A stretch of DNA of 20,000 nt, from the IMG/VR virus record IMGVR_UViG_3300025135_000004; one strand, 5' to 3'. Under the pieces are notes generated by a model. The model saw only the letters and a list, made by a program, of their open reading frames with translations, ran no database searches and had not been told where the DNA came from. The position numbers were made by a program, and so were the translations under genes. Below, piece by piece: positions 4,174 to 20,000 of the stretch. Every line of letters starts with the position of its first letter. Position 1 is the stretch's first letter. Origin of the DNA: an uncultured virus (IMG/VR IMGVR_UViG_3300025135_000004) (lineage: Duplodnaviria; Heunggongvirae; Uroviricota; Caudoviricetes).

Positions 4174-4209
4174 AAAAAGGGGAACTCTTAATTGAGTTCC
4201 CCTTTTTTT
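4174..4209. terminator. Bidirectional intrinsic terminator between the convergent VWA and glycosyltransferase genes
   Basis: AAAAAGGGGAACTC-TTAATT-GAGTTCCCCTTTTTTT, a perfect 14-bp inverted repeat with A/T tails. Confidence 0.92.
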
Positions 4210-5531: not shown

Positions 5532-5819
5532 CTATTGTATATTTGTACCTGTGGCCGTTATATAAAAATTTAAAACTCTGGGTTTATTATTCTCGTCAAT
5601 AAAATTAACATCCCCAGATATTGCACACGCATCAATAATGTGTGGGTCCATATTCCAATTCAATTCAACCTGAATACTTGGAAGGTATTTTTTAAGGATG
5701 ACATCAAGCCCTTTTCTTAACTTAGCATCATTTTGCTCAAACAGTGAATTTAAAGCCCAATGCTCTATAGTTGTCTTTATAAGTTTTCCGTGGAAACTGT
5801 CTTTCTCCTCTTCTTGCAT
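5532..5819 (-). CDS. Small protein resembling the C-terminal domain of contractile tail sheath protein (95 aa)
   Basis: SLFEQNDAKLR...ISGDVNF...VLNFYITATG resembles the sheath C-terminal (L)FE(P/Q)ND...F.IT.TG signature. Ends 1 nt before the ATG of the GT4 gene. Confidence 0.55.
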   Translation of the reverse strand: MQEEEKDSFHGKLIKTTIEHWALNSLFEQNDAKLRKGLDVILKKYLPSIQVELNWNMDPHIIDACAISGDVNFIDENNKPRVLNFYITATGTNIQ

Positions 5820-5832
5820 AATTATATTTTTA

Positions 5833-5863
5833 GAAATATAGAATTAGAATTGTTCAAAATCAA
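5833..5863 (-). promoter_or_regulatory. Putative host-RNAP-type promoter TTG-N20-TATATTTC (TTGATT-N17-TATATT)
   Basis: Same downstream octamer and spacing as 798-829. Lies 13 nt upstream of the ATG at 5819. Confidence 0.5.
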
Positions 5864-5881
5864 TACTTAATACTAAAAAAC

Positions 5882-5908
5882 AAAAAAGAGGATAATAAAT
5901 ATCCTCTT
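5882..5908 (-). terminator. Intrinsic terminator of 5933..6205
   Basis: Minus strand AAGAGGATA-TTTAT-TATCCTCTT-TTTT. Confidence 0.75.
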
Positions 5909-5932
5909 CTAATTAATTATCAAATGCCTTTT

Positions 5933-6205
5933 TTAGTTTCCTAAATACCCATCTACATTTTTGATAGCATCAACAATATCCATCATAGGCTGTCCAAGCG
6001 GTAGATTTAATTCTGTGTTATCAAAATTCCTATCAATTTCAAGTAGACCCCTTCTTTCTTGAGCATCAAGAGGAGCTGTTAATTTATTGAGAGATAGAAC
6101 TATTTCTCCAGGATTTAAAATTACTCCAGGGTTTTTGTCTGCACCAAGAGCAATAGAAATTTTAACTGGCGATTGATTTATGTTTTTAATTTTCCAAGTA
6201 TTCAT
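5933..6205 (-). CDS. Hypothetical protein (90 aa)
   Basis: ORF between 6256..7365 and the terminator, with an ATG start and plausible composition. Confidence 0.7.
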   Translation of the reverse strand: MNTWKIKNINQSPVKISIALGADKNPGVILNPGEIVLSLNKLTAPLDAQERRGLLEIDRNFDNTELNLPLGQPMMDIVDAIKNVDGYLGN

Positions 6206-6255
6206 AGTAAGTGTTTTTCTAAATGTAATAATTCGATTTATTAAACTAAAGTGAA

Positions 6256-7365
6256 TTATGATTTTATGTATCCCTTGTTTTTTGATATTCTATCAACTGG
6301 CACATAATAAGTGTCAGTACCGAACCTCCACTCTTGAACTTCAGAGTTTTCTCTAACAAGCATTTTTTTATCTCCAGAATTTATATTTTCACTTAACTCT
6401 TCTGGTAGTACAACTTTTTGAAAATTAATACCCTCAACAATTTCGCTCATAGTTATATTGAATTCAATTTCCTCGTCACCACTTGTATCTTCATTTATAG
6501 CTGTCGTGTTTAAGTTATCTGGATTTATTGCTCCAAGAGCATAATTAGGAACATCACTTGATGCCTTCTCTGTATTTGTTAGAAGAGAGTCTTTAACAAT
6601 TCCCATCACAATATCATGCACAACCTTCTCAAGGTCTACCGAACTTTTAATGTAAGTCTCAAGCTCTCCCTTGGTAGGTTCGTCAATCTGAGGCATTGAA
6701 GGTGCTGCATATGGATTTTCTTTGTATCCAGGACCTTCAGAATAATCTGGCAAAGAACTCTTTTCTACAAAGCTACTGGTTCCATTTGCGTAATTAAACG
6801 TAATCTCTCCTATTTCCTCAAATTTAGCAACATAAACCTTTGCCTTGGTTTTCCCTTGCTCAATCCAAAGGTCATTCATAGATTTTTTAACCTCTGGGTC
6901 ATCCATAAGTCTCATTGGCTTATAACTAAGGTTTTCACCACTTTCTCCAATATCATTATATTGAAATACAAACAACTCTGATGGCTCAGCTTTCTTAAGT
7001 ACCTCTGGTAACTCAGGCGTATAACCCACAGCAGGAATAGAGTCTTGTTCCGAAGGTGTTGAGCCAGCATCTAAAAAAAATGTCTCAGTGTCACCAGTTG
7101 TGTTCACCTGCTGTTCTGGAGAGGCTTCAAATTGGTTTTGGTCAGGAAAATTCTTATCAAATCCCCCTTCAGATGGGGGAGTAGGGGTATCAAGCTCTGA
7201 AACTATATTTGGAATCTCTTTCGCTGCCTCTCTTTTTTTGAACGCAAGAATTTTATCTTTAATTCTTTCAATAGCATCTTCTGGAAGTGATTCCTCAAGA
7301 TTTTCTTGTCGAATCCCATTGGCTATCAACGCTTTTAATTCTTCTATATTGATTTGTTTTGACAT
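6256..7365 (-). CDS. Acidic hypothetical protein (369 aa), probable virion/head-associated
   Basis: N-terminus INIEELKALIANGI shares the motif of other acidic proteins. E/D/P-rich linkers, TATTTATA upstream. Confidence 0.75.
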   Translation of the reverse strand: MSKQINIEELKALIANGIRQENLEESLPEDAIERIKDKILAFKKREAAKEIPNIVSELDTPTPPSEGGFDKNFPDQNQFEASPEQQVNTTGDTETFFLDAGSTPSEQDSIPAVGYTPELPEVLKKAEPSELFVFQYNDIGESGENLSYKPMRLMDDPEVKKSMNDLWIEQGKTKAKVYVAKFEEIGEITFNYANGTSSFVEKSSLPDYSEGPGYKENPYAAPSMPQIDEPTKGELETYIKSSVDLEKVVHDIVMGIVKDSLLTNTEKASSDVPNYALGAINPDNLNTTAINEDTSGDEEIEFNITMSEIVEGINFQKVVLPEELSENINSGDKKMLVRENSEVQEWRFGTDTYYVPVDRISKNKGYIKS

Positions 7366-7378
7366 AAACGCTTTTTTA

Positions 7379-7386
7379 TATAAATA
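7379..7386 (-). promoter_or_regulatory. TATTTATA putative late-promoter motif
   Basis: 13 nt upstream of the ATG at 7365. Confidence 0.55.
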
Positions 7387-7436
7387 TTAAGATTTTTATT
7401 AAATCAATAATCCTTTGTTTTAATCAAAAAAATGCT

Positions 7437-7444
7437 TATTTATT
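7437..7444 (+). promoter_or_regulatory. TATTTATT putative late-promoter motif
   Basis: 20 nt upstream of the phoH ATG. Confidence 0.5.
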
Positions 7445-7464
7445 GAAAAAGAAATAAATATTTT

Positions 7465-8253
7465 ATGACGCAACGTAAGAGACCAGCTAAAAAACTATCC
7501 AAAAGTTCTCAAGATGAAGTTGATGAATACAGAATCACCAAACTTGATAGAACGGTATTTAATGAGTTTATAAAACTAAAGGAATTAGATTTTGAGCTTA
7601 CAAACAAACAAAAACACCTTATTAGAATCCTAAAGACAAATAGCATAATAACCATAACAGGACCTCCAGGTACTTCAAAAACATTTATTGCATGTTATGC
7701 GGCAATTCAAGAATTTTTTAAGGGAAATTTTGATAAAATAATTTTATGTAAGCCGACAGAAGTTCTTTCTGGAACAAGAGACCCTGGAGCCCTACCTGGT
7801 TCGCTTGATGAGAAAATGTCTGTCTATGCAGAATCTTTTTTTGATGCATTTGAGGAATTTTTGGAACCAAAAGATTTTAGGCAACTCTGGGATTCTAAGG
7901 TTATAGAATTTAAACCAGCTCAATTCCTAAGAGGACGTTCTATAAAAAACGCATTTATCATAATTGATGAGTTTCAAAATTTTGACTCTAAGGCCCTAAA
8001 ATCTATTGTGACAAGGAAGGGTAGGAATAGTACTATAGTATTCATGGGAGACACAAGGCAGAATGATATAAACAAGAAGCATGTTGCTGTAGATGTTTTT
8101 AATCAACTCATAAAGGAGATGGGCGAGGGATGTGAAGCTTTTAAATTTGAAAGAGCAGATATTGTTAGAGACCCAATGCTCATAAAACTAATGGACCTGT
8201 GGGAAGAGTTTGAAGATAACGACAAGTGGCCAGATACAATAAAAGGAGCTTAA
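7465..8253 (+). CDS. phoH: PhoH-like ATPase
   Basis: GPPGTSKT (Walker A variant), GALPGSLDEKM, FLRGRS, IIDEFQN, MGDTRQND and DIVRDP motifs. Confidence 0.92.
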   Translation: MTQRKRPAKKLSKSSQDEVDEYRITKLDRTVFNEFIKLKELDFELTNKQKHLIRILKTNSIITITGPPGTSKTFIACYAAIQEFFKGNFDKIILCKPTEVLSGTRDPGALPGSLDEKMSVYAESFFDAFEEFLEPKDFRQLWDSKVIEFKPAQFLRGRSIKNAFIIIDEFQNFDSKALKSIVTRKGRNSTIVFMGDTRQNDINKKHVAVDVFNQLIKEMGEGCEAFKFERADIVRDPMLIKLMDLWEEFEDNDKWPDTIKGA

Positions 8254-8277
8254 GGGTAAATTTTTATTTTTTACCCC

Positions 8278-8285
8278 TATTTATA
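8278..8285 (+). promoter_or_regulatory. TATTTATA putative late-promoter motif
   Basis: 14 nt upstream of the ATG at 8300. Preceded by a GGGTAAA/TTTACCC inverted repeat (8254-8276). Confidence 0.55.
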
Positions 8286-8299
8286 GAAAAATTACAACT

Positions 8300-8509
8300 A
8301 TGAATATAAGCTATTTTGTACCTGGAACTCCAGATGATAAGCCAAAAAGAGAGGATAAAGGACTAATTAGTCCAAATCAACTTAGGGAGGGCGCTCAAAA
8401 GAAGGCTCAAAAAATTGAGCAATCTAAAAACAACACTGGCCTAATGTCTAATAATGAGAATAGATTATTGACAGATGACGGAAGAGAAATATTTAATGAA
8501 AATAATTAA
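8300..8509 (+). CDS. Small hypothetical protein (69 aa), paralog of 8513..8674
   Basis: DKGLISP and LLTDDGREIF motifs shared with the next ORF. Confidence 0.75.
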   Translation: MNISYFVPGTPDDKPKREDKGLISPNQLREGAQKKAQKIEQSKNNTGLMSNNENRLLTDDGREIFNENN

Positions 8510-8512
8510 GTC

Positions 8513-8674
8513 ATGAGTGAAGAAAATAAGAAACCAATCGACAAGGGTTTAATACAACCAGAAGACATTAAAACTCCAGCAAAAAAAGTTGATAGGAAAA
8601 TAAGTCTTAAAAATGATATTGTCGAAAGAGATGGAGAAATCAAAACAGATGATGGTAGACAACTCTTAAAATAA
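8513..8674 (+). CDS. Small hypothetical protein (53 aa), paralog of 8300..8509
   Basis: Not in the ORF track. Manual translation MSEENKKPIDKGLIQPEDIKTPAKKVDRKISLKNDIVERDGEIKTDDGRQLLK*. Starts 3 nt after the previous stop and is followed by a terminator. Confidence 0.78.
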   Translation: MSEENKKPIDKGLIQPEDIKTPAKKVDRKISLKNDIVERDGEIKTDDGRQLLK

Positions 8675-8691
8675 TTGGCTAAGCCATAAAC

Positions 8692-8727
8692 AAAAAAAGC
8701 TCGAATAATATCGAGCTTTTTCTTTTT
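8692..8727. terminator. Bidirectional intrinsic terminator
   Basis: AAAAAAAGCTCGA-ATAATA-TCGAGCTTTTTCTTTTT between convergent genes. Confidence 0.88.
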
Positions 8728-8737
8728 GTTATTTTTT

Positions 8738-9394
8738 TTATTGAGGATTCTTAATCATTTTTTTGATATTCTGAATCTCCATTCCACCATCTACAATTTC
8801 TTCGTATCTGTCATTAATCTTTCTGTAAATTTTGAGTTTACCATTTCCTCCGATACTAAGATTTGGAAGAGAAGCTAAATCACCTGATTCCAGACCAGGA
8901 ATGTTTGTGGATACAATTCTATAGTTATTTCCATCTTCAACTTGTTTAACCAAGTCAATTTTGAATTTTTCTGTCTGAATTCTTAGTGCCCAACCTTTTT
9001 TGAAATTTACATTTTCAAACTCAGTCATATTCTGGTTATTAAATACATTTGCTCCTTTCGCTGCAACATCTACAATTTGACCATGAAGGTCATTTTTCTG
9101 TTGATTAAGGAGTTTTATTTTTGTATTGTATCCATTAATAACCTTTGTTAGAGCATCCATTTGCGCAGACTTAATATCCTTTAGCTCAGAATAATCTTCT
9201 TTGCTTATAGCAGACTTTTCTTCGTTATTTAGCTTCTCAAGTTTTTTTTCAAAAAGGTCAATAACATCGTTAACGTCCTCCATCGAATGTTTAACCTCGG
9301 CAGATACGTCCTTTAAAAAAGAAGCCTGAGATTCTTTTATAATTCTCAGGCTCTCTTTTCTAATTAAATCTCTAATTATTTTTTCCTCATTCAT
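8738..9394 (-). CDS. Hypothetical protein with N-terminal coiled coil and C-terminal beta-rich domain (218 aa)
   Basis: IIRDLIRKES..IIKE N-terminus, heptad-rich first half. Last gene of a 3-gene minus-strand operon. Confidence 0.75.
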   Translation of the reverse strand: MNEEKIIRDLIRKESLRIIKESQASFLKDVSAEVKHSMEDVNDVIDLFEKKLEKLNNEEKSAISKEDYSELKDIKSAQMDALTKVINGYNTKIKLLNQQKNDLHGQIVDVAAKGANVFNNQNMTEFENVNFKKGWALRIQTEKFKIDLVKQVEDGNNYRIVSTNIPGLESGDLASLPNLSIGGNGKLKIYRKINDRYEEIVDGGMEIQNIKKMIKNPQ

Positions 9395-9411
9395 AAAGAA
9401 TGTGTATTTTG

Positions 9412-10137
9412 TTATTTTAATTTAGCAAGAGCCTTCATTCTCTCAAGCTCTCTGTCAAGGGCACTTTTTTGTGCTGGAGTTTTTCCTTCACTAAGTAAAG
9501 TAGTTCCTTTTTTAACACTTTCGTTAACGTGTGTATCCTTTTCCATGTAGTCGTTGAATCTCGCTTCAGAATCTTGAGCTGGAGTTTCTCCTTCGATTGG
9601 CTCTTCAAGGTCTTCGTTAAGCTCTTCGTTGATTTCTTCGCTAAGTTCTCCCTCGCCTACAACCTCTTCAACTTCCATGTCTTCATCATCAGTCTCTTCA
9701 ACGTCAAATTCCATTTCATCTCCATCAATTTCCATTTCTTCACCGCCCATTTTAGCGTCAAGTTCTCTACCAAGTTCAGAAAATTTCATTTCGAAATATC
9801 CCATTTCTGGAGCGTCCATTTCTTCTCCACCAAGTTCCATTTCACCTTCGATTTCATCATCTTCTTTCAAGTGACTTCCGATTTTCTCGAATTTCTCACC
9901 ATACTTAACGTCTCCTTTACCAGCACCAGTCCATCCTGTAGACTTTATAGTTTTAGTTCCAGTAGCTTCAACCTCAGAAAGAGTTGTAGGAAGAGTTTCC
10001 AATTCTGAATTGATAGCTTCAAGCCTTGATTTGATTTCATTAGCTCTTGAAGCGTCTTTTGCCATAGAAGCATACTCCTCTTTAATGATTTGTTCTAACT
10101 CGGCTTTTGTTATTTGAAATTTGTTGTCTTTTTTCAT
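9412..10137 (-). CDS. Highly acidic scaffold/internal-head-like protein (241 aa)
   Basis: QITKAELEQIIKEE N-terminus, long E/D/M/G-rich tract, repeated [LI]-x-E (LSEEINEELNEDLEE), C-terminal LDRELERMKALAKL helix. Confidence 0.65.
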   Translation of the reverse strand: MKKDNKFQITKAELEQIIKEEYASMAKDASRANEIKSRLEAINSELETLPTTLSEVEATGTKTIKSTGWTGAGKGDVKYGEKFEKIGSHLKEDDEIEGEMELGGEEMDAPEMGYFEMKFSELGRELDAKMGGEEMEIDGDEMEFDVEETDDEDMEVEEVVGEGELSEEINEELNEDLEEPIEGETPAQDSEARFNDYMEKDTHVNESVKKGTTLLSEGKTPAQKSALDRELERMKALAKLK

Positions 10138-10163
10138 GACTATTAGTTTTCTTTATTATGTGA

Positions 10164-10526
10164 TTATTTATTATTAGAAATTTGCTTCTTAAGATTTTCT
10201 ATTTCAGCCTTAAGTTTAGCGTTCTCATCAATGATGTCTTCGTTGATTTTTTCTTTCTTATCGCTTTCAGAAAATTCTGCTTCTAATCTTGCGATGTTTG
10301 AGATGTTTTGGAAATTACTATCAACAAAACCATGCTTGTGAGTATCTGACATATCTCCTACAAAACCGAAAGAACCAGCCATGCCTAAGCTTGCTTCGTT
10401 AAGCGCCTTAAGTTCTTCTTCAATTCTTTTAACGTCTTCATAAAGCTCTTCTTTTCTCTTAATCCTTAGACCTTCTTTAAGAATCGCTTCTTTAATAGCA
10501 TTTGGGCTAACCTTTGATTTATTCAT
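10164..10526 (-). CDS. Coiled-coil hypothetical protein (120 aa)
   Basis: IKEAILKEG..KRIEEELKALNE and a C-terminal ENAKLKAEIENLKKQI coil. TATTTATTA upstream. Confidence 0.75.
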   Translation of the reverse strand: MNKSKVSPNAIKEAILKEGLRIKRKEELYEDVKRIEEELKALNEASLGMAGSFGFVGDMSDTHKHGFVDSNFQNISNIARLEAEFSESDKKEKINEDIIDENAKLKAEIENLKKQISNNK

Positions 10527-10540
10527 CTTTACTTGTTTTT

Positions 10541-10549
10541 TAATAAATA
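10541..10549 (-). promoter_or_regulatory. TATTTATTA putative late-promoter motif
   Basis: 14 nt upstream of the ATG at 10526. Confidence 0.55.
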
Positions 10550-10660
10550 TTCAAAAAAATTGATTTTCTCAATTCAATTATTTATTTTTCATTCAAAAGC
10601 ATTTGCTTTCATATAAATAGAGAGAAAATGTATAAACCAATAATTTTTAAAAATTTACGC

Positions 10661-11017
10661 ATGGGAAAGTTAATTAACGCAAGTAAAGAAGAATTTCAAC
10701 AAATTATAGAATCAGAGAAAAATGTTATTCTCGTAGATTTTTGGGCAAATTGGTGTGGCCCATGTAGAACACTTGGTCCTATTTTGCAAGATATATCAGA
10801 TGAGGTTGAAGATGTTACAATTCTTAAGGTAAATGTTGATGAAGGTGAGAATGCAATGTTATCTGCTCAATTTGGTATTAAGGGAATTCCTACAGTAATT
10901 GTATTTAGGGGCGGTGAGCAAGTTGACAAGTTCGTTGGACTTAGGAAGAAGGATGAGATAATATCTGTGATTGAAAAAAATAGAGAAACAAAAGAGGTGG
11001 ATGAGTCAAAAAATTAA
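10661..11017 (+). CDS. trxA: Thioredoxin
   Basis: VDFWANWCGPC active site, KVNVD, GIPT. The ATG at 10661 gives typical Trx length (ORF track start 10628). Confidence 0.93.
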   Translation: MGKLINASKEEFQQIIESEKNVILVDFWANWCGPCRTLGPILQDISDEVEDVTILKVNVDEGENAMLSAQFGIKGIPTVIVFRGGEQVDKFVGLRKKDEIISVIEKNRETKEVDESKN

Positions 11018-11858
11018 TGCCATAGTATTCAGTAAAGACAGGCCAGCCCAGTTGAACCTACTGCTTGAGAGCATTAAAAAAAATGCCCCAGGAGTATTTG
11101 ACTTAAATGTAATTGTCAGTCATACAAGCGAGGAATTTGACAAGGGATATGGACGAGTGATTCATAATCCAGAGTTTTCTGATGTAAAATTTTTCTTTGC
11201 AGAATCAGAATTTAAGGAGCAAGTTATGAGGCTTTTAAGTGTCGAGGGCAAGTATTCTTGCTTTTTTCTTGATGATGACCTTATATACAGAGAAGTTAAA
11301 CTTGCCGACATTGAAACTCAGCTGGAGCTTGATGATGATGTTGCTTGTTTTTCTTTGAGACTTGGAGAGAACACAAAGAATTGCTATACGCTTGGGACAA
11401 ACAATGTGCTCCACGATATGGAGCACGTGCAGAATACCATGAAGTGGGACTGGACTCTTCACTATCTTGATTTTGGATACCCCTTTGCGATGGATGGGCA
11501 TATATTTAGAAAATCAGATATTTACAAGCTTGTAAAAAAATCTAAATTTACAGGTGTTGAGGAGCTTGAGATGGCGCTATTTGATTTTACTGAGATGTTT
11601 CCAAGAAATAAAATGGTGTCATATAAGTATAGTGCTCTTGTTGGAGTTCCAATAGGAAGAGTGCAGCAGTCAATTGATGATGAAATGACCATCGCTCTTC
11701 AGGAGAGCAAGGCCAGAGTTATGAGAGTTGAGATGAATAATCAATTCTTGGATAATAATTTTATAAGTTTAGAAAAAATAGACTTTTCTGAAATAAATGG
11801 ATGTCATCAAGATTTAAACCTTGGCGTAAAAATAAAAAAACAGCAAGAAAATGAATAA
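11001..11858 (+). CDS. Putative GT-A fold glycosyltransferase
   Basis: IVFSKDRPAQLNLLLES N-terminus and FFLDDD (DxD-like). Probable ATG at 11001, overlapping the trx end. Confidence 0.6.
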   Translation: MSQKINAIVFSKDRPAQLNLLLESIKKNAPGVFDLNVIVSHTSEEFDKGYGRVIHNPEFSDVKFFFAESEFKEQVMRLLSVEGKYSCFFLDDDLIYREVKLADIETQLELDDDVACFSLRLGENTKNCYTLGTNNVLHDMEHVQNTMKWDWTLHYLDFGYPFAMDGHIFRKSDIYKLVKKSKFTGVEELEMALFDFTEMFPRNKMVSYKYSALVGVPIGRVQQSIDDEMTIALQESKARVMRVEMNNQFLDNNFISLEKIDFSEINGCHQDLNLGVKIKKQQENE

Positions 11859-12483
11859 GATTGAATATACAAACCCTTCGTTTCAAAGGATAAAATCACA
11901 ACTTGGAGCTCCTTCGATAGATATTGAACTTACGAATGAGCAAATGGCTGACTTACTTGAAAGTGCTCATAACGCCTTTTACCTGCTTTATGAGTTGGAT
12001 AAAGTAGAGAGAACAAAATACTTCAAAGACTTCTGGGTTGAGCAATATTTTTTCGCACTGTGCAAGGAGGCTCTTGGGAGAGTTAGAGGAAAATTTGACG
12101 GAAAACTACCAGTTCCAGGAACAGAATTAAAACTTAATCACAAGGAGTTGTTGGTGGAGGCAGATAAGGAAAAACAATTCCTTAGATATTTGATGCTTAA
12201 GGATAAAAACATTTTAATAGAAAATCAAAAACCAATCTTAGCATTCTATATAAATGTGAGAAATATGAATGGTGAAGATGTATCAACTTTAGTTGAACAA
12301 ATCAAAGCGGAGTTCCACAGCGATAATCTTATACAGTATTTTGTTCCGATTAGAGATGGTGAAAGCAGAATTGAGTGCGTATACCCAAAATACATTGCAA
12401 GCGATGAAGTCAAGAAGGAAATAGAGGAATCTACTTCCTGTTTTAATAATCGAATAAAAAACTTTGAAGGTAATGAGGAATAA
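11851..12483 (+). CDS. Miniature neck protein (gp13-like) fused to a portal (gp20) clip-like segment
   Basis: aa 11-115: IKSQLGAPSIDIELTNEQM and WVEQYFFALCKEALGRVRGKF..PG..LN...L.EA..EK..L match the gp13 N- and C-terminal motifs. aa 128-179: FYINVRNMNGEDV...YFVPIRDG.SRIE resembles portal FYIDVGN...Y(F/W).P.R. Confidence 0.6.
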   Translation: MNKIEYTNPSFQRIKSQLGAPSIDIELTNEQMADLLESAHNAFYLLYELDKVERTKYFKDFWVEQYFFALCKEALGRVRGKFDGKLPVPGTELKLNHKELLVEADKEKQFLRYLMLKDKNILIENQKPILAFYINVRNMNGEDVSTLVEQIKAEFHSDNLIQYFVPIRDGESRIECVYPKYIASDEVKKEIEESTSCFNNRIKNFEGNEE

Positions 12484-13216
12484 AATCAAAATAATAATAC
12501 CATTCTATAATCCAGGGGAATTTTTGGAGCAATGTGTTGCAACTGCAATGTCACAAAAGTATGACAACTACGAAGTAATATTTATTGACGACATGTCAAC
12601 AGATGGCTCTTACGATAAATTACCTCATGATAATCCTAAGGCAAAGATTATTAGGAACACAATCAGGAAGACAGCTCTTGAAAACATTCACGATGCAATT
12701 ATGAACCATTGCGAGCCAGATGACATCGTTGTCCTTCTCGATGGAGACGACTGGTTTCCAAACAAGAAAGTCCTTCAATATGTTGATGAACAATATAGTG
12801 AACATGATTGCTGGATTATGTATGGACAAGCGAGTTGGACAGATGGTAGAAGAGGATTTGCAAGCGCATATCCAGTGGAAGAATTTAAAAACGTTAGAAC
12901 GGCCCCATTTAGAGTTTCCCATCTTAGAACTTTTAGGGCTGGACTTTATCATAGAATTAAAGACCAAGACCCGACTTTTTCTCACCTTAAAGATGATGAG
13001 GGAAATTTCTATCGTTGGTCATACGATACAGCAATGATGTTTACAATAATGGAGATGGCTGGCCACGAGAAGACAAGGTTTAATGATACGATTCTTTATA
13101 TCTACAATAGAGATAATCCTATCTCTGAAGATAAAGTAAATCAACAAGCCCAATGGGATGTTCATAAAGCTGTCAGCAAAAAAAAGCCTATGATGCAGAT
13201 TTTATCTTATAAGTAA
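12473..13216 (+). CDS. GT2 family glycosyltransferase
   Basis: IIIPFYN, IFIDDMSTDGS, LLDGDDW. Probable ATG at 12473. Confidence 0.9.
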   Translation: MRNKIKIIIPFYNPGEFLEQCVATAMSQKYDNYEVIFIDDMSTDGSYDKLPHDNPKAKIIRNTIRKTALENIHDAIMNHCEPDDIVVLLDGDDWFPNKKVLQYVDEQYSEHDCWIMYGQASWTDGRRGFASAYPVEEFKNVRTAPFRVSHLRTFRAGLYHRIKDQDPTFSHLKDDEGNFYRWSYDTAMMFTIMEMAGHEKTRFNDTILYIYNRDNPISEDKVNQQAQWDVHKAVSKKKPMMQILSYK

Positions 13217-13227
13217 AATACTATTTT

Positions 13228-14139
13228 ATGGTAGGAGAGTTAGATAATTTAATAAATTACATTAATGCAAAAAAAATTGATTACAATAATATTAAAGAAA
13301 ATAATATCGTAATCATTCAAGACCCAGAAAAGTCTTATGATATTAATTTTTTAATTACAGCGAGGGGTAGGGCAAATTTTGCTCAACCAATGTATGATAG
13401 TTTTAAGGCGGCTGCAGATAATTCTAAATTAAACATCACATATACAGTTGTTGAACACAGTGAATTTCCAGAACACTCAAAATTCTGTAAAAAAAACAAG
13501 CTTAATTATATTTGGATTAAATCTACTCCAGGAGAGCTGTTCAACAAGTGTCTATCCTACAACGTGGGTGTTTTTTTTGGGCCTAAGTCAAAATATTGCT
13601 TATTTCACGACATAGATTGCTTAGTTCAATCTGATTTTTTTATTAAATTATCAGAAAATATTGAAAACAAAAAATGTAGAGCTATTCAGTGTTTCACTGG
13701 GAGGAGAGTTTTGTATATTAGCGAGCAATTTACACCTAAAGTTATTTCTGGAGAATTTTCAGTTGATAACCTAAATCTTTCTATGCCAGAAGTTGACTTA
13801 CCAAGACTTGGGGGAAAAGTGATGATTGGCGCTCCTGGTGGCTCCATTCTCGTTGAGAGAGATTTGTTTTTTGAAGTTGGTGGATATGATGCTGAATTAT
13901 TTTTAGCAAATTCTCCAGAAGATGCTTTTTTTTGGGAAAAGATTGATGCAATTGATAAGATGCATATTTCTGATAGCCCAGACATTGAATTATATCACAT
14001 GTACCACCCGCCTACTTGGATGAATAATCCATATGTAGATGAGATGCAGATAATAAATAAAATTTTTAAAGAATTGAGTTTAGAAGACAAAAAAATAATA
14101 ATTAGTCTAAAATCTGATGTGATTAAAGAGTTTAAATAA
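13228..14139 (+). CDS. Glycosyltransferase, GT2/GT7-C (galactosyltransferase-like)
   Basis: FNKCLSYNVG, FHDID, VGGYDAELF...ED and LYHMYHP motifs. Confidence 0.8.
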   Translation: MVGELDNLINYINAKKIDYNNIKENNIVIIQDPEKSYDINFLITARGRANFAQPMYDSFKAAADNSKLNITYTVVEHSEFPEHSKFCKKNKLNYIWIKSTPGELFNKCLSYNVGVFFGPKSKYCLFHDIDCLVQSDFFIKLSENIENKKCRAIQCFTGRRVLYISEQFTPKVISGEFSVDNLNLSMPEVDLPRLGGKVMIGAPGGSILVERDLFFEVGGYDAELFLANSPEDAFFWEKIDAIDKMHISDSPDIELYHMYHPPTWMNNPYVDEMQIINKIFKELSLEDKKIIISLKSDVIKEFK

Positions 14140-14149
14140 AATCTAAAAT

Positions 14150-14749
14150 ATGATTGATATTGTTTATTACATAAACCTGGACCACAGAGATGATAGAAGG
14201 GCTCACATAGAAAAAACGTTAAAAAAATGTGACCTTATAAATATTTCACACAGAATTTCAGCAATTAAAAGAGATATTGGTGTCATGGGTTGTGTTGAGT
14301 CTCATATTCTAACTTTAGAAAAATTTATTGAATCAGGATTAGATTATGCGTTGATAATAGAAGATGATTTGTTAATAAAAGAAAAAGAAAATTTTAAAAA
14401 AGAATTGTCTAAAATATTTGAAAAGAACATAGATTTTGATTTAGTTCAAATATCTGGAAATCACATAAAACTTGATGATTGCAGTTATGATTTCTTAAGA
14501 AAAGTAATTGATTCTCAGACCACCTCTGGATACATAATAACAAGAGGATTTGCACCAATTCTATTGAAAAACTTTAGAGAGTCTCTTGAGAATATGAACA
14601 AGGAAGGTAAGAAACATGAAAATTGTTTAGATATTTATTGGAAAAAATTACAACCAGACAATAAGTGGTTTGCATTTTTCCCAGCTCTTGGAACTCAAAT
14701 GCCTGGGTATTCGGATATAGAAAATAGAGATGTATATTATAATTGTTAA
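14150..14749 (+). CDS. GT25 family glycosyltransferase
   Basis: YYINLDHRDDRR, GCVESH, IIEDD, TSGYII and SDIE motifs. Confidence 0.85.
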   Translation: MIDIVYYINLDHRDDRRAHIEKTLKKCDLINISHRISAIKRDIGVMGCVESHILTLEKFIESGLDYALIIEDDLLIKEKENFKKELSKIFEKNIDFDLVQISGNHIKLDDCSYDFLRKVIDSQTTSGYIITRGFAPILLKNFRESLENMNKEGKKHENCLDIYWKKLQPDNKWFAFFPALGTQMPGYSDIENRDVYYNC

Positions 14750-14751
14750 TT

Positions 14752-15561
14752 ATGCAGGAAGAAAATATGAATAATATAAAAATTTATTGCAGCTGGGACC
14801 TTGAAATTGAATTAAAGCACGAGAAACAAATAGAGTTGTACGTTGACAAACTTCCAGTAGATAAAAGTCCACCTGGAGTTGTAAGATTTGTCTTTCTATT
14901 GGAGCCTCCTGAGATATTAGATTTGACTAAACACATAATTCAAGCACATCATAATAACACATTCGACTATTTATTTACTCATAACCAAGAGTTATTAGAT
15001 ACGATAAAAAACTCATTTGTAATGCCGCTGGCATCCACTTGGATTAGAGACTATAATTTTCCAGAAAAAGAGTTTTCTGTATCCGCTCTTGTTGGTGGAA
15101 AACTTCTTGCACCTGGACATTATCTTAGGCAAAAAATCTGGTTTAAAGAAGATAAAATAACTGTGCCAAGAAGATTTTTTTTGAGTGGTAATTATGGTGG
15201 AATAGAAAATTATAACAATAACCCAATTCTTGGAAAAGATAAGGCACCTTTATTTGATAGTCAATTTCACATTTGTATTGAAAATGCTAATAGGAGAAAT
15301 TGGTTTACTGAAAAAATAATTGATTGCATGGTTACTAAGACTGTTCCTATATATTGGGGTTGCCCAAATATAGGAGATTGGTTTGATACGAGAGGGATGA
15401 TTATAGCAAGTGATTATAAAGAGATAATTGATAAGTGCAATTCTCTAAACGAAAACACATATAATGAAATGCTTCCATTTATTGAAAGTAATTTTGAAGA
15501 GTCAAAAAAATATGTTAGTATTGCAGATAGATTAAGAAATAAAATTTTAGAACTAATATAG
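14752..15561 (+). CDS. GT10-like (alpha-1,3/4-fucosyltransferase family) glycosyltransferase
   Basis: FHICIEN....FTEKIIDC..TKTVPIYWGCPNI signature. Start at 14752 or 14767. Confidence 0.8.
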   Translation: MQEENMNNIKIYCSWDLEIELKHEKQIELYVDKLPVDKSPPGVVRFVFLLEPPEILDLTKHIIQAHHNNTFDYLFTHNQELLDTIKNSFVMPLASTWIRDYNFPEKEFSVSALVGGKLLAPGHYLRQKIWFKEDKITVPRRFFLSGNYGGIENYNNNPILGKDKAPLFDSQFHICIENANRRNWFTEKIIDCMVTKTVPIYWGCPNIGDWFDTRGMIIASDYKEIIDKCNSLNENTYNEMLPFIESNFEESKKYVSIADRLRNKILELI

Positions 15562-15600
15562 ATAAAGCATAATAGTTTTATAGTAAAATAAAAATTTAAA

Positions 15601-16797
15601 ATGGGAAATCCTACATGGCCAGATGTAATGAAATTTGAATTGGTTAAAAACCCAATTTTATTTGACGTAGGCGGATATAAAGGTGATTGGGCACAGATAG
15701 CTATGGATAATTACGGAGATTCAGTAATTTATGTGTTTGAACCAGTAAAAGAATTCTACAACATAATAGTTGAAAGATATAAGAATAATTCAAATATAAA
15801 AGTGTTTAACTTTGGATTATCAGATGAAAATAGAACTGAAAAAATATCAAATTCAGCCGATGCATCTTCTGTATTTCTTGGAGGCGGAGGAGAAGAAATT
15901 GAATTAAAAGACATTAGAGAGTTTTTGTTTGAACAAAATATATTTCATGTAGACTTAATAAAAATAAACATTGAAGGGGAAGAATATAGACTTTTGGAGC
16001 ATCTAATCAAACATCCAGAACTTAATGTGTTTGAAAATTACCTGATTCAATTTCATACATTTATCGACAATCACATAGAAAGGAGGAATGTAATTGTAGA
16101 GGAAATATCTAAATATTATGAAAGAGTTTTTAATTATGAGTTCATTTTTGAAGGATGGACTATGAAAAAAATTCAAAAGATAAACTGCTTTGGAGATAGT
16201 CATATTAGTATTTTTTCTCAAGCCGAGCACTTAATTAAGGAAAATATATTTTCAATTACAGGTCCATTTAATGCTTTTCGATTTGGCCCTTATGTGGCAT
16301 ACAACCTTCAGAGTAAGTCAAATGTTATAAGTAACATAAGTGCTGTAAATAAAAACGAAAATCTTCTTATTTGTTTTGGAGAAATAGATTGTAGAGCTCA
16401 AGTTAAAAAAGTATGTGAAGAAACCAATAGGGGTTATAAAGAGGTTATTGATGAAATTATATATAATTACTTCACTGTAGTAAAATGCGCAAACAATAAA
16501 AACACTATATTATTCTCAGTTGCTCCAGAATTAAAAGAAAAACCCCATTGGTATTATTACAAAGACCATCCAGAAGTCTTTGATTGTCCAAGAGGAACAC
16601 TATCTGAAAGAGCAGAATATAAAAGGTATTTTAATCAAAGAGTAAAAGAGGAATCTGAGAAATTAGGATTAAAATATATTTCAATTTATGATTATGTTAA
16701 TGGAAAAGATATTTACTATCTTGATGATATTCACTTGGCCCCTAAAAAGGTTTTTTATTTTATTAAAAGAGAAATGATTAAAAACGGATTAATATGA
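15601..16797 (+). CDS. FkbM-family methyltransferase fused to SGNH/GDSL-like hydrolase domain
   Basis: N-terminus FDVGGYKG, VFEPV, FNFGLS, LIKINIEGEEY. C-terminus CFGDSH, FGEIDCR, DDIHL. Confidence 0.8.
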   Translation: MGNPTWPDVMKFELVKNPILFDVGGYKGDWAQIAMDNYGDSVIYVFEPVKEFYNIIVERYKNNSNIKVFNFGLSDENRTEKISNSADASSVFLGGGGEEIELKDIREFLFEQNIFHVDLIKINIEGEEYRLLEHLIKHPELNVFENYLIQFHTFIDNHIERRNVIVEEISKYYERVFNYEFIFEGWTMKKIQKINCFGDSHISIFSQAEHLIKENIFSITGPFNAFRFGPYVAYNLQSKSNVISNISAVNKNENLLICFGEIDCRAQVKKVCEETNRGYKEVIDEIIYNYFTVVKCANNKNTILFSVAPELKEKPHWYYYKDHPEVFDCPRGTLSERAEYKRYFNQRVKEESEKLGLKYISIYDYVNGKDIYYLDDIHLAPKKVFYFIKREMIKNGLI

Positions 16798-17597
16798 CAA
16801 TAAAGTCAGATAAAATGGAAATTTCAGCAACACTTCAAGGCGGCCTCGGAAACTACATGTTTCAAGTTGCTGTCGCATATGCATACGCAAAAAGATATGA
16901 TATGGAGGTTGGTTTTAGTGCTCAACAAGCAAGGGGGCCTCACCAAGATGCTTGGGAATATCAAGATAATGTATTTAAGGGTGTTGATTTGGTATTTTTT
17001 ATGAAAGGGAATCCACGTCAAATCCTCGAATCTGGATTCCACTATCAAGAATTACCTTTTTATCCAAATATAAGTATCTTGTTAACAGGATATTTTCAAT
17101 CTGAAAAATATTTTAAGGATTACGAAAATGAGATTAGAGACCTATTTATGTCATACGATGTTGAGCTTAGTGACGAGATTAGAGGACTTCTTGAAAATGA
17201 AAATACATGCTCAATACACGTAAGAAGGGGCGATTATCTTAAGTCCCCAAATCATCACCCAACTCAGAACATGAACTATTACATGAAGGCTATTAGGCAA
17301 ATGCCAAAAGATTCTGTGTTTCTTATTTTTTCTGATGATATTCAGTGGTGCAAAGACAATTTTCCAGACCTTCCAGAAAAGTTTAAATTCATAGAAGGAA
17401 ACAAAGATTATGAAGACCTTTATCTGATGAGTCGATGCAAAAACAACATTATCTGTAACTCAACATTTTCATGGTGGGGAGCTTGGCTTAATAGAAATGA
17501 GGACAAAATAGTTGTTGCCCCCTCAACCTGGTTTGGGCCCGCATACTCTAATTATAATATAGATGACCTTTATTGTGATGGTTGGATTAAAATTTAA
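16794..17597 (+). CDS. GT11 alpha-1,2-fucosyl/colitosyltransferase
   Basis: GGLGNYMFQ, GYFQSEKYF, HVRRGDY, FSDDIQWC and NSTFSWWGAWL motifs. Confidence 0.92.
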   Translation: MTIKSDKMEISATLQGGLGNYMFQVAVAYAYAKRYDMEVGFSAQQARGPHQDAWEYQDNVFKGVDLVFFMKGNPRQILESGFHYQELPFYPNISILLTGYFQSEKYFKDYENEIRDLFMSYDVELSDEIRGLLENENTCSIHVRRGDYLKSPNHHPTQNMNYYMKAIRQMPKDSVFLIFSDDIQWCKDNFPDLPEKFKFIEGNKDYEDLYLMSRCKNNIICNSTFSWWGAWLNRNEDKIVVAPSTWFGPAYSNYNIDDLYCDGWIKI

Positions 17598-17601
17598 TTA
17601 A

Positions 17602-18516
17602 ATGAAACAAGATAGAATAGTAGTTACAGGAGGAAGTGGCATGGTCGGCAAGTCTCTTAAGAAGATTATGCCAAATGCAATATATCTTTCATCCAAAGAT
17701 TATGACCTCACATCCGAGAGAGGTGTGGCTCAGATGTATTATGACCTTAAGCCAAGCGTGGTAATTCATCTTGCGGCCAAGGTGGGTGGAATCGTTGATA
17801 ACATCAACAGGCCCAGCACTTATTTCACTGACAATGTTCTTATGAATACGCTTCTTGTTGAATATGCAAGACATCACGGTGTAGAAAGGTTTATAGGAAT
17901 ATTGAGCACATGCATATACCCTGATGTTGCTGAAAATTATCCGATGACTGAAGATATGCTTCATCACGGCCCCCCAACTCCAACCAATTTTTCTTATGGA
18001 TATGCGAAGCGTTGCCTGGCAGTTCAAATAGATGCATGCAACAAGGAGCATGGGACAAATTATCAATATCTCACTCCATGCAATCTCTATGGAGAGCATG
18101 ATAAGTTTGGAGATAATAGCCATTTCGTTGCAGCATTAATTAAAAAGATTCATCACGCAAAAGTCTTTGGAGATGATAAGATAACTCTTTTTGGAACAGG
18201 AGCTCCTCTTAGGCAGTTTATGCACTCAGATGACCTTGCAAAAGTTATCAAGAAATGTATTGATGATGAAATTTATGAAAGCTTTAATGTTGCCACAGAG
18301 CAAAATGTTTCTATTGACGACATCGCCAGAACAGCCCTTAGAGCTTGCGATGCAACTCACATTAAAATTGAGTACGATTCAAGCAAGCCAGATGGTCAAT
18401 TTCGAAAAGATGTGTCAATAGAAAAGATGAAAAGTTTGTTTCCAGAATTTAAAGCAACGAGGCTTTATCACGGAATCGGCTCAACATATTCTATTTTACA
18501 GCAAACCTGGAAATAA
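17602..18516 (+). CDS. fcl: GDP-L-fucose synthase / ColC-like epimerase-reductase
   Basis: TGGSGMVG, HLAAKVGGI, LSTCIYP, YGYAK, PCNLYG, SHFV, GTGAPLRQF and KPDG motifs. Confidence 0.88.
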   Translation: MKQDRIVVTGGSGMVGKSLKKIMPNAIYLSSKDYDLTSERGVAQMYYDLKPSVVIHLAAKVGGIVDNINRPSTYFTDNVLMNTLLVEYARHHGVERFIGILSTCIYPDVAENYPMTEDMLHHGPPTPTNFSYGYAKRCLAVQIDACNKEHGTNYQYLTPCNLYGEHDKFGDNSHFVAALIKKIHHAKVFGDDKITLFGTGAPLRQFMHSDDLAKVIKKCIDDEIYESFNVATEQNVSIDDIARTALRACDATHIKIEYDSSKPDGQFRKDVSIEKMKSLFPEFKATRLYHGIGSTYSILQQTWK

Positions 18517-18570
18517 TCAACTTGATTATTAATTTTCATTTTCATATTATTAATAAAAATAATGTGAAAG

Positions 18571-19758
18571 ATGATAAAAGAAAAAATTACGCTTGTCAAA
18601 GACACCATCGACAAAGATGATATTGATAATTTAATTGAGTGGCTTAAAACGTATCCACGACTAACCAAGGGCCCTAAGACAATTGAATTTGAAGAGATGT
18701 GGTCCAATTGGATTGGGTGCAAGTATTCAGTGTTTGTAAATTCTGGCTCTTCAGCCAACCTTCTCATGCTTTATGCACTTAAAGTATTGGGTAATCTAAG
18801 AAACGATAAAATTGTAGTTCCAGCTCTTGCTTGGGCAACTGACATGGCTCCAGTAATTCAACTTGGATTTGACCCACTTATCTGTGATTGCAACATGCAG
18901 AACCTTGCGGTTGATACGAGTCAGCTTGAGTCAATTTTTAAATACCACAAGCCAGCGGCAATGATTCTTGTGTCTGTTCTTGGACTATCTCCAGATATGG
19001 ATAAGATTGTTGAGCTTTGTCAGAAGTACGGAGTTGTTCTTCTTGAGGATAACTGTGAGTCTCAAGGAACTGAGTTTGACGGAAAGAAGCTTGGGAACTT
19101 CGGACTCATGTCTTCATTCTCCACTTACTTTGGGCACACAATGAGCACAATTGAGGGTGGAATGATTTGTACAAACGACAAGGATGTATATGACCTATTG
19201 AAGATGCTTAGAAGCCACGGGTGGGATAGAGACCTTGATGAAGATGCGCAACAAAAATTAAGAGCCAAGTGGGGGGTTGATGATTTTTCTGCTCTTTACA
19301 CTTTTTATGAGCCAGGATTCAACGTGCGCTCAACCGACCTTCAAGCGGTGATTGGAATTGGCCAGCTTAATAAGGTTGATTCAATGATTGATACAAGAAA
19401 TGAAAATTTCTATCACTTTCTTGATGCTATGAAATCTTTTGATAAAAAGAAAAAAGTCTGGACACCAACTGAGCATAAAAATTCGTTTACAGCATCTTTC
19501 TGCTATCCAATGATATTCCTGAATAAGAAGGATAAGGAAAAAGCTGTTAAGGCCTTAATTGATGCAGGCGTTGAGACAAGACCTCTCATCTGTGGTTCCA
19601 TGGGAACTCAACCATTTTTTATTAGTAGATATGGTAGACATGAAACTCTAAATGCAGCTGTTGTTGATGAGTGTGGAATCTATGTTCCAAATCACCCAAA
19701 GCTAACTAAAGAAGATATAGAGTTTATTTGTAAAACAGTAATTGAATCAATTAAGTAA
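18571..19758 (+). CDS. DegT/DnrJ-family PLP enzyme, ColD-like GDP-4-keto-6-deoxymannose 3-dehydratase
   Basis: VNSGSSANL, LLEDNCES, FSTYFGHTMSTIEGG with His189 in place of the Schiff-base Lys, and LRSHGW without the E1 Fe-S cysteines. Confidence 0.8.
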   Translation: MIKEKITLVKDTIDKDDIDNLIEWLKTYPRLTKGPKTIEFEEMWSNWIGCKYSVFVNSGSSANLLMLYALKVLGNLRNDKIVVPALAWATDMAPVIQLGFDPLICDCNMQNLAVDTSQLESIFKYHKPAAMILVSVLGLSPDMDKIVELCQKYGVVLLEDNCESQGTEFDGKKLGNFGLMSSFSTYFGHTMSTIEGGMICTNDKDVYDLLKMLRSHGWDRDLDEDAQQKLRAKWGVDDFSALYTFYEPGFNVRSTDLQAVIGIGQLNKVDSMIDTRNENFYHFLDAMKSFDKKKKVWTPTEHKNSFTASFCYPMIFLNKKDKEKAVKALIDAGVETRPLICGSMGTQPFFISRYGRHETLNAAVVDECGIYVPNHPKLTKEDIEFICKTVIESIK

Positions 19759-20000
19759 TGAAATCGGTTCACAAAAGACTTGATGGGCTGGAGCCTAAGT
19801 GGAATCTCTCTTGGGATTATCTTGGTTATAAGAAATATATTGACAAAGATATAGTTATACCTCAAAGAGATTGGATTCAAACCCTTATTACAAGAATTAA
19901 TGAGATTTCTACTCAGATGCATATGTCAACTCTTTTGGAGCCAGCAAACACTGTTATAACAAGCCCAAGTTGTGCTGGATTAATTGAAAGCTTTGAGTAT
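19758..20000 (+). CDS. Partial protein resembling an internal segment of T4-like major capsid protein (gp23)
   Basis: Not in the ORF track. ATG overlaps the previous TAA (TAATG). Translation MKSVHKRLDGLEPKWNLSWDYLGYKKYIDKDIVIPQRDWIQTLITRINEISTQMHMSTLLEPANTVITSPSCAGLIESFEY, open to the window edge. Confidence 0.6.
   Translation, partial: MKSVHKRLDGLEPKWNLSWDYLGYKKYIDKDIVIPQRDWIQTLITRINEISTQMHMSTLLEPANTVITSPSCAGLIESFEY

Follow-up and report, generated by a model that had tools for sequence, protein, structure and literature searches.

Three small genes of a large T4-type phage belong to families of excised virion domains

The 20,000-nucleotide stretch of the uncultured virus record IMGVR_UViG_3300025135_000004 (the whole of it is called the window below) carries three small open reading frames (ORFs) that resemble pieces of virion proteins. 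The first (5532..5819, minus strand) encodes a free-standing C-terminal domain of the tail sheath, the second (11851..12483, plus strand) a fusion of part of the neck protein gp13 with the clip domain of the portal, and the third (19758..20000, plus strand) an isolated HK97 A-domain of the capsid protein. These mini-genes come from old families of accessory genes for single domains cut out of T4-type virion proteins, which selection keeps beside the full-size genes; family members also occur solo or fused to one another. They form a real, selected and apparently undescribed gene class, and the newness applies to the gene class only.

The source phage is large, AT-rich and of the T4 superfamily, and complete related records are 320-380 kb long. 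Moraphages have been described as large aquatic phages with Bacteroidota hosts and four core glycosyltransferases (PMC12619734). The genomic context is drawn from relatives: full-size structural genes are demonstrated in the relatives' contigs and not in the window's own genome. Three IMG/VR contigs (G001-G003) have the same gene order as the window, and about 3-45 kb past the gene that matches its left end they encode a prohead protease, a capsid protein of 558-561 aa, gp13 of 395-396 aa, a sheath of 892-896 aa, tube, terminase and portal. Full-length copies, whose presence elsewhere in the genome the preliminary description had wanted confirmed, therefore lie on the same contigs as the mini-gene loci in three syntenic relatives. 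Full-size sheaths are present in 13 of 15 records.

That description, made from the sequence, had likened the ORFs to sheath, gp13, portal clip and gp23, and all four homologies hold by profile-profile alignment. Family profiles were aligned by hhalign with the clade's own full-size proteins, with reversed profiles as controls (all below 1); the probabilities were 95 for the sheath C-terminus, 99 for the capsid, 97 for the stand-alone clip and 98 for gp13. The profiles were also run against 1514 ORFs from the fetched loci. As single sequences, only gp13 gives strong evidence (phrog_211, E 8.9e-10); the evidence is moderate in the case of the capsid piece (E 6e-4) and weak in that of the sheath piece (E 0.5). 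Profile searches of the PDB found gp13 and missed the clip, sheath and capsid homologies. Structure matches were obtained for the sheath mini-gene and, through a homologue (P0171), for the capsid mini-gene.

The fusion encodes 210 aa: gp13 domain I, the portal clip and a C-terminal helix. Its gp13 half, the helical core of head-tail adaptor Ad2 (11866..12204, residues ~6-118), matches residues 11-46 and 238-295 of T4 gp13 (PF26809, phrog_211) in a PDB profile search (E 1.2e-9), and phrog_211 is matched by 11/11 members of the fusion family. The two stretches are joined by 10 residues in the fusion and by ~190 in T4 gp13. They correspond to domain I, defined as residues 3-51 and 239-300 (PMC12929587). 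The domain I bundle is present, and domains II and III are absent, as is the full length of 370-400 aa seen in the clade. Unlike T4 gp13, the fusion lacks the swing and fibritin-binding domains, has the clip in place of the C-terminal arm and lies outside the neck operon; in relatives, a 395-aa gp13 is found separately on the same contig.

The clip half (12232..12393, residues ~128-181) has the strand-helix-strand-strand motif of the T4 gp20 clip (residues 279-358; PF07230) and aligns with residues 258-327 of the clade's portals, with an hhalign probability of 94 for the clip of the fusion family (reversed control 0.14). In-genome searches with the clip matched full portals at the same place, and among the 1514 ORFs the clip profile picked out portals or ORFs of portal size (E 7e-9 to 2e-3). 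The match covers ~55-70 residues of a 630-700 aa portal. In contrast to gp20, the fusion has no stem, wing or crown, which are needed for the dodecamer; its long hairpin is shortened and a C-terminal helix is added. The portal clip is the docking site for terminase gp17 and neck gp13 (PMC4493910), and the helices of gp13 domain I touch the clip (PMC12929587), so the fusion unites two partners of one interface. The structure model of the fusion is poor (pLDDT 59), and Foldseek returned gp13 only (E 0.14-0.25) and nothing for the clip. As a single query, the fusion found no match in viral contigs or annotated phages, and the alignment of its family found none in GTDB genomes.

The capsid mini-gene is cut by the window end after its first 81 codons. 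Its full length is probably ~135 aa, judging from P0171 (135 aa), which is 87.7% identical over 81 aa. It shares 41% identity with the capsid protein of a relative over residues 392-452 of the latter (E 8e-14), and its family profile ranked capsid proteins among the 1514 ORFs (E 8e-19). The model of P0171 is confident and compact (pLDDT 91), with HK97-fold capsids as its best matches (T4 gp23: Z 11.4, rmsd 3.0, 128 aligned; S6: Z 11.8); it also matches the free A-domain protein PF0899 (PDB 2PK8; Z 7.6, rmsd 3.0, 88 aligned). In the alignment, the A-domain core is joined to the final strand and the P-domain strands between them are excised. The start is equivalent to residue ~375 of 558, in agreement with the earlier remark that the gp23 N-terminal half is missing: the A-domain is present, and the N-arm, E-loop and spine helix are absent. 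The C-terminal P-domain strands are absent in P0171-P0176; the window ORF itself is cut at 20000. Stand-alone relatives of the A-domain are 134-209 aa long, and in the longest (P0180, 209 aa) the A-domain is fused to a portal clip in which the long hairpin is retained. In one related locus (L085:16034-16591), a capsid-mini homologue runs in frame into the N-terminus of GDP-mannose dehydratase (Gmd), where the locus ends. Positions 19748-20000 of the window form, in one sequencing run, a separate 510-nt contig that runs past the window end (depth 13.8 versus 9.4), with the break right at the start of the capsid mini-gene; this stretch is possibly a variable module.

Is the 95-aa product of the sheath mini-gene closer to the sheath or to gp25? 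Both the sheath C-domain (PF17482) and gp25 (PF04965) are in the same fold class by the Atlas model, which scores TM 0.73 to a 100-aa cluster of sheath C-domains and 0.72 to gp25, so that the folds tie; the sheath clusters matched by the predicted fold have 100-103 aa and 70 and 239 members. The sequence is nearer the sheath. The hhalign probability against the clade's sheath C-termini is 95 over 82 columns (E 2.7e-8; reversed control 0.25), compared with 69 over 35 columns for gp25. The FEQND motif of the clade's sheaths is shared, and in the 1514-ORF search sheath C-termini rank next after the family's own members (best E 5e-4). In related genomes gp25 is encoded by separate genes of 126-140 aa. 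The C-terminal domain is the part of gp18 that is present, in 95 aa against the 800-950 aa of sheaths, and the remaining domains are absent. As had been stated, the two complete ORFs are far too short to be the real structural proteins, the fusion lacking gp13 domains II and III and the portal stem, wing and crown. Homologues of the sheath mini-gene are 95-102 aa long. A further homologue of 92 aa in G012 is found by the family profile (E 5e-6); as a single sequence its hhalign probability is below 6.

How large are these families? Ten fusion homologues are 203-211 aa long and 40-65% identical. A profile search of 1.84 billion representatives gave 1324 hits; the best 150, sorted by hand, comprise ~45 clip-only, ~46 gp13-core-only and ~16 fusion proteins, and some of the gp13-core-only proteins may be contig fragments. 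A clip mini-gene and a full portal are both found in 8/10 near-complete records, most of which were picked via the mini-gene. Different combinations of mini-genes are seen: gp13 with clip in the window, A-domain with clip in P0180, and a clip directly before a mini-gp13 in L246. Identity to virion proteins of the cognate type is 24-42% over the matched stretches.

Conservation and dN/dS had been named as checks. The mini-genes are conserved and under purifying selection, with dN/dS of ~0.06-0.4. Codon models (GY) give omega values of 0.105 for the fusion (13 sequences), 0.11 for the clip (26 genes) and 0.064 for the sheath mini-genes (four), with 0.054-0.070 for neighbouring genes. Pairwise dN/dS is 0.20-0.30 in the four fusion pairs that are closest, 0.26-0.39 among the sheath mini-genes, whose dS approaches saturation, and 0.23 in a single capsid-mini pair (81 codons). 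The dN of the sheath and capsid mini-genes is 3-6x that of the neighbouring enzyme, yet dN/dS remains below 1.

In phylogenetic trees, 15 A-domain minis lie on one side of a branch (99/93), nearest to the capsid proteins of G007 and G018 and not to those of the window's clade. Thirty clips stand apart from portals (100/99), with the P0180 clip among the portals, which suggests that the clip has at least two origins and that of P0180 was separately derived. Twenty-eight gp13 cores stand apart from full-size gp13 (89/87, unstarred), and among these cores fused and solo forms are intermixed. The alignments are short (82-112 columns), long-branch attraction is possible, and the bootstrap of the clip tree is not settled. 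Because they group apart from the full-size proteins, the mini-genes are not fresh debris. Could they still be neutral remnants of duplicated or recombined structural genes? Their patchy distribution among relatives and the many short scattered fragments, some with 30-55 residues of similarity, would fit such an origin. Against it stand lengths kept at 31-65% identity, the dN/dS values, boundaries that match domains, the confident A-domain model and the size of the families. Decay of this kind is highly improbable overall, and for the fusion and clip family it is already largely refuted.

Other fragments of virion genes were seen in related genomes. Proteins of 132-134 aa in L232 (4759-5157) and L234 (4746-5150) match the first 90 residues of the capsid protein (probability 94) and lie within an operon of PhoH, clip, HAD-like, GT-B and GT-A genes; ORFs related to them are far from glycan genes in G011, G012, G017 and G018. 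G011, G017, G018 and G024 have more short ORFs with pieces of the tail tube, sheath N-terminus, capsid C-terminus and prohead protease. Several core genes are enlarged or split (the portals of G003, at L172 and L185, and of G005, the terminase and protease of G011, and the terminase of G021), with portal open frames of 1107 and 1469 aa, which suggests inteins or introns. Additional candidates were rejected at hhalign probabilities below 6: an ORF of 119-136 aa near the GT4 slot (L084, G024), a 99-aa ORF after ColD (G024) and eight other small ORFs.

When might the mini-genes be expressed? The motif TATTTAT lies 13-31 nt before the capsid, protease, scaffold, terminase, tube and portal genes of G001-G003 and is, from this placement, a putative late promoter. 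In the window's clade, no window mini-gene lies within a structural operon or has a conserved late motif close to the gene. The earlier remark that no mini-gene has TATTTAT directly upstream stands in substance, because the copy of the motif 75 nt upstream of 5819 lies in the loop of an intrinsic-terminator-like hairpin (5884..5910, minus strand) that ends the upstream unit, and this copy is not conserved in four relatives; as a promoter it was rejected. A sigma70-like consensus, TTGATT-N17-TA(A/T)3T, has five matches in the window, three of which head the mini-bearing units and are conserved in relatives. One (TTGATT-N17-TATATT; 5835..5863, minus strand) is 15 nt before the start of the sheath mini-gene and is also found in L001, L002 and L081. 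In L003 it precedes GT4 with no mini-gene, so the element belongs to the glycan unit and the mini-gene is a guest. The second (10560..10588, plus strand) overlaps a conserved TATTTAT and heads the thioredoxin-glycan operon that contains the fusion. The third (18522..18550, plus strand; also in L085 and G003) is 20 nt before the ColD-like gene and heads the unit with the capsid mini-gene. The divergent intergenic region at 10527-10660 is highly conserved: in eight sequences, sigma70-like and TATTTAT motifs overlap on each of its strands. A search for a general early-promoter rule among mini-genes found none, and since the element heads just 2/24 of the mini-bearing units elsewhere, early timing does not hold generally.

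What could such domains do? Bacteria sense most core virion proteins by their fold, which is hard for phages to mutate away. The favoured explanation, put forward tentatively, is that the mini-genes encode accessory mimics, made ahead of the real proteins, that would compete for the portal, adaptor and capsid sensors of the host. Host-type promoters would drive their transcription before that of the late structural genes. The products would fold as soluble monomers unable to form a ring, lattice or tube, and would occupy the sensors of the portal clip, portal adaptor and capsid A-domain, which would then be neither clustered nor activated. The real virion proteins would thereby escape sensing, and glycan operons would chiefly be convenient non-late transcription units receiving such cargo. 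Each piece kept is a whole domain, and sensors have been reported for three of the four. The interface of the A-domain is bound by Avs7, 8 and 10, the portal adaptor is the target of Avs12, and such sensors recognise the core fold while extensions stay free (10.64898/2026.01.04.697583). The portal clip is contacted by Avs4 and also serves as the docking site of SpbK, which becomes active through clustering on the dodecamer of the portal ring (PMC12847820); a monomeric clip could therefore bind without activating. Decoy action, one of three options raised at the outset, is the best fit to the anatomy, except that the A-domain and clip suggest sensors of the Avs7/8/10, Avs4 and SpbK types rather than the Lit or CapRel named then.

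Several observations weigh against decoy action. Avs sensors recognise monomeric core folds (10.64898/2026.01.04.697583), so an isolated core could trigger rather than block them, and a sheath sensor is not among the targets named in the available part of that source. The 2/24 units headed by a sigma70-like element elsewhere, one of which is the orthologous unit, compare with 63/1059 unit heads overall. Short, fast-evolving sequences can also group by long-branch attraction. Finally, short fragments are near glycan genes in 6/19 cases against a background of 6%, which a pure passenger reading does not predict.

A broader form of the decoy proposal is a more doubtful possibility. Huge T4-type phages may possess an exchangeable arsenal of virion domains cut out of their parent proteins (A-domain, clip, adaptor core, sheath C-domain, capsid N-terminus and tube pieces), which would act as non-activating decoys for bacterial pattern-recognition receptors. 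The domains would be placed downstream of host-type promoters and combined by fusion into multivalent decoys, the window's mimic of the portal-neck junction being one example. If so, the domain set would map the virion surfaces sensed by hosts, including a sheath sensor yet undescribed. Should the mini-genes block sensing, they would represent a novel type of counter-defence and would show which surfaces are sensed.

The same interface anatomy would also suit modulators or poisons of assembly. Free domains could cap virion interfaces or compete at them, the clip at the terminase and neck, the A-domain at capsomer centres and the sheath C-domain at the sheath end, and so time the phage's own assembly or spoil that of co-infecting relatives. 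The fusion of two partners of one interface fits such a role, as do the sheath domain, which has a role in assembly and no listed sensor, and the A-domain minis, whose nearest capsid proteins are of other lineages. An identity of 24-42% to cognate-type proteins is, however, low for co-assembly, and the absence of mini-genes from structural operons and from conserved late motifs in the window's clade also speaks against it. Each mini-gene is missing in close relatives, so the phage's own assembly does not need them. Interference with assembly is unlikely; if it did occur, the mini-genes would be natural inhibitors of head and tail building.

Are the mini-genes linked to glycosylation? In the window, the sheath mini-gene is the first of a two-gene unit and is followed after 1 nt by a GT4 glycosyltransferase that starts at 5530 (4208..5530, minus strand; PF00534 E 3.2e-7, phrog_7162 E 7.3e-41). 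The fusion overlaps the upstream ORF (10971..11858, plus strand) by 8 nt and the start of a downstream GT2 glycosyltransferase (12464..13216, plus strand; PF00535 E 6.6e-18) by 11-20 nt. The start of the capsid mini-gene has one base in common with the stop of a DegT/ColD-like sugar aminotransferase/dehydratase (18571..19758, plus strand; PF01041 E 3.4e-66). Coordinates and overlaps were rechecked, and the three ORFs abut or overlap their neighbours as claimed. Glycosyltransferases on both sides of the fusion had also been described: Pfam supports the downstream GT2, whereas the identity of the upstream gene as a glycosyltransferase is unproven, with no family or structure match. Its 285-aa product (family 285-330 aa) found no match in PHROGs, Pfam, PDB or NCBIfam; it is conserved in 9 aligned loci, has a DxD-like motif and is possibly an unclassified GT-A enzyme.

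Such neighbours raise the question of enzyme partnership. By binding or being fused to glycan enzymes, the domains could serve as scaffolds or direct the enzymes to parts of the virion; a role of this kind has been proposed for A-domain (Family 4) encapsulins, where the A-domain gene follows an enzyme gene (PMC8346489). The in-frame Gmd fusion of L085 supports this, although it is on a single contig and may be a lost stop. GT2 lies 1-3 genes after the fusion in 11/11 loci, which are one clade and probably one insertion. The same enzyme pairs nevertheless occur without mini-genes. Before GT2, G021 has nothing in the slot and G024 has only a clip; the sheath mini-gene is present in 3/7 relatives that cover its slot and the A-domain in 1/4. 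The A-domain follows ColD in the window, precedes and is fused to Gmd in L085, and is absent from the slot in G021, G024 and L246. A motif scan of 57 loci, 54 with a clip ORF, gave 42 unique clips, of which 33 are at most three genes from a glycan gene, two are at 6-8 genes and seven have none in view. Further insertions into such operons involve mini-gp13 (L244, L246) and capsid N-terminal minis (L232, L234), yet nearly all of the 33 near clips belong to a single orthologous operon (PhoH, clip, HAD-like, GT-B, GT-A).

In five near-complete records and G024, 19 short fragments were counted, leaving out rows due to 20-kb tiling or a contig start and two weak hits. Six are at most three genes from a glycan gene, compared with 6.0% of 2207 small ORFs in the background, and 13 are at 7-187 genes, including the sheath-mini homologue in G012 and a clip in G018. 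When three orthologous clips are merged, 4/17 are near (binomial P 0.016); when the weakest case is dropped, 3/16 are (P 0.067). The enrichment above chance is suggestive at best, because the records were found via a mini-gene and the glycan labels come from local profiles and three Pfam searches. There is no obligate pairing of mini-genes with glycan genes, and their placement beside them looks mostly incidental. The proposal of one system in which each mimic is coupled to glycosylation genes is therefore not upheld, since the slots are facultative and 13/19 fragments in six related records are at least seven genes away. Partnership with glycan enzymes is improbable.

Alternatively, stable small folds may have been recruited for an unrelated job, such as host-protein binding or chaperoning, with their structural origin incidental. 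Low identity to the parent proteins, the C-terminal helix added on clip minis and the many unrelated gene contexts are consistent with this. The repeated excision of different virion domains, the at least two origins of the clip and the fusions between minis are hard to explain if origin is irrelevant, which makes such recruitment quite unlikely.

Which known systems do the mini-genes resemble? Ocr is a phage mimic-type anti-defence protein. Similarly, a small accessory protein of ICP1 that mimics an antitoxin is proposed to neutralise a defence by resembling its natural ligand (PMC13728456). These mimics copy host antitoxins or DNA, whereas the minis copy the phage's own virion proteins, and any decoy activity of the minis is putative. 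Family 4 encapsulins (DUF1884/PF08967, e.g., PF0899), the nearest described system, are, like the capsid mini, free HK97 A-domains of ~100-135 aa encoded downstream of an enzyme gene (PMC8346489). According to the same source they are cellular and found in thermophilic archaea and two Bacteroidetes genera; by contrast, the phage mini is clearly derived from a gp23-type protein and its enzyme neighbour is not fixed. PF08967 is matched by 0/14 members of the capsid-mini family at E up to 1, and Gp23 by 6/14. No description of phage mini-paralogs of virion domains was found in the literature, mostly open-access, and no such gene class is mentioned in the available parts of reviews of jumbo phages and counter-defence (PMC7824862, PMC13728456) or of a survey of crAss-like phages (PMC7886860). 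The locus contributes the gp13-clip fusion of two portal-neck interface partners, an A-domain whose predicted fold is confident and a direct check of the link to glycan genes.

Several further genes were noted. A 775-aa gene with a vWA domain (window 1829-4156; phrog_2426) is present in L001, L002, L081 and G024 and missing between the same neighbours in L003. A GT2-like protein in L081 (11321-12493) and L001 (11347-11839) has an extra N-terminal part of 130 residues, the start of which resembles, by eye, small proteins that begin with KIKN, such as the one encoded at 5933-6205 of the window. Finally, a conserved GT-B protein of 380-410 aa (L189:6870-8018 and homologues), missed by Pfam and matched to PDB 8xsg (E 1.3e-13), is found in all six tiled records.

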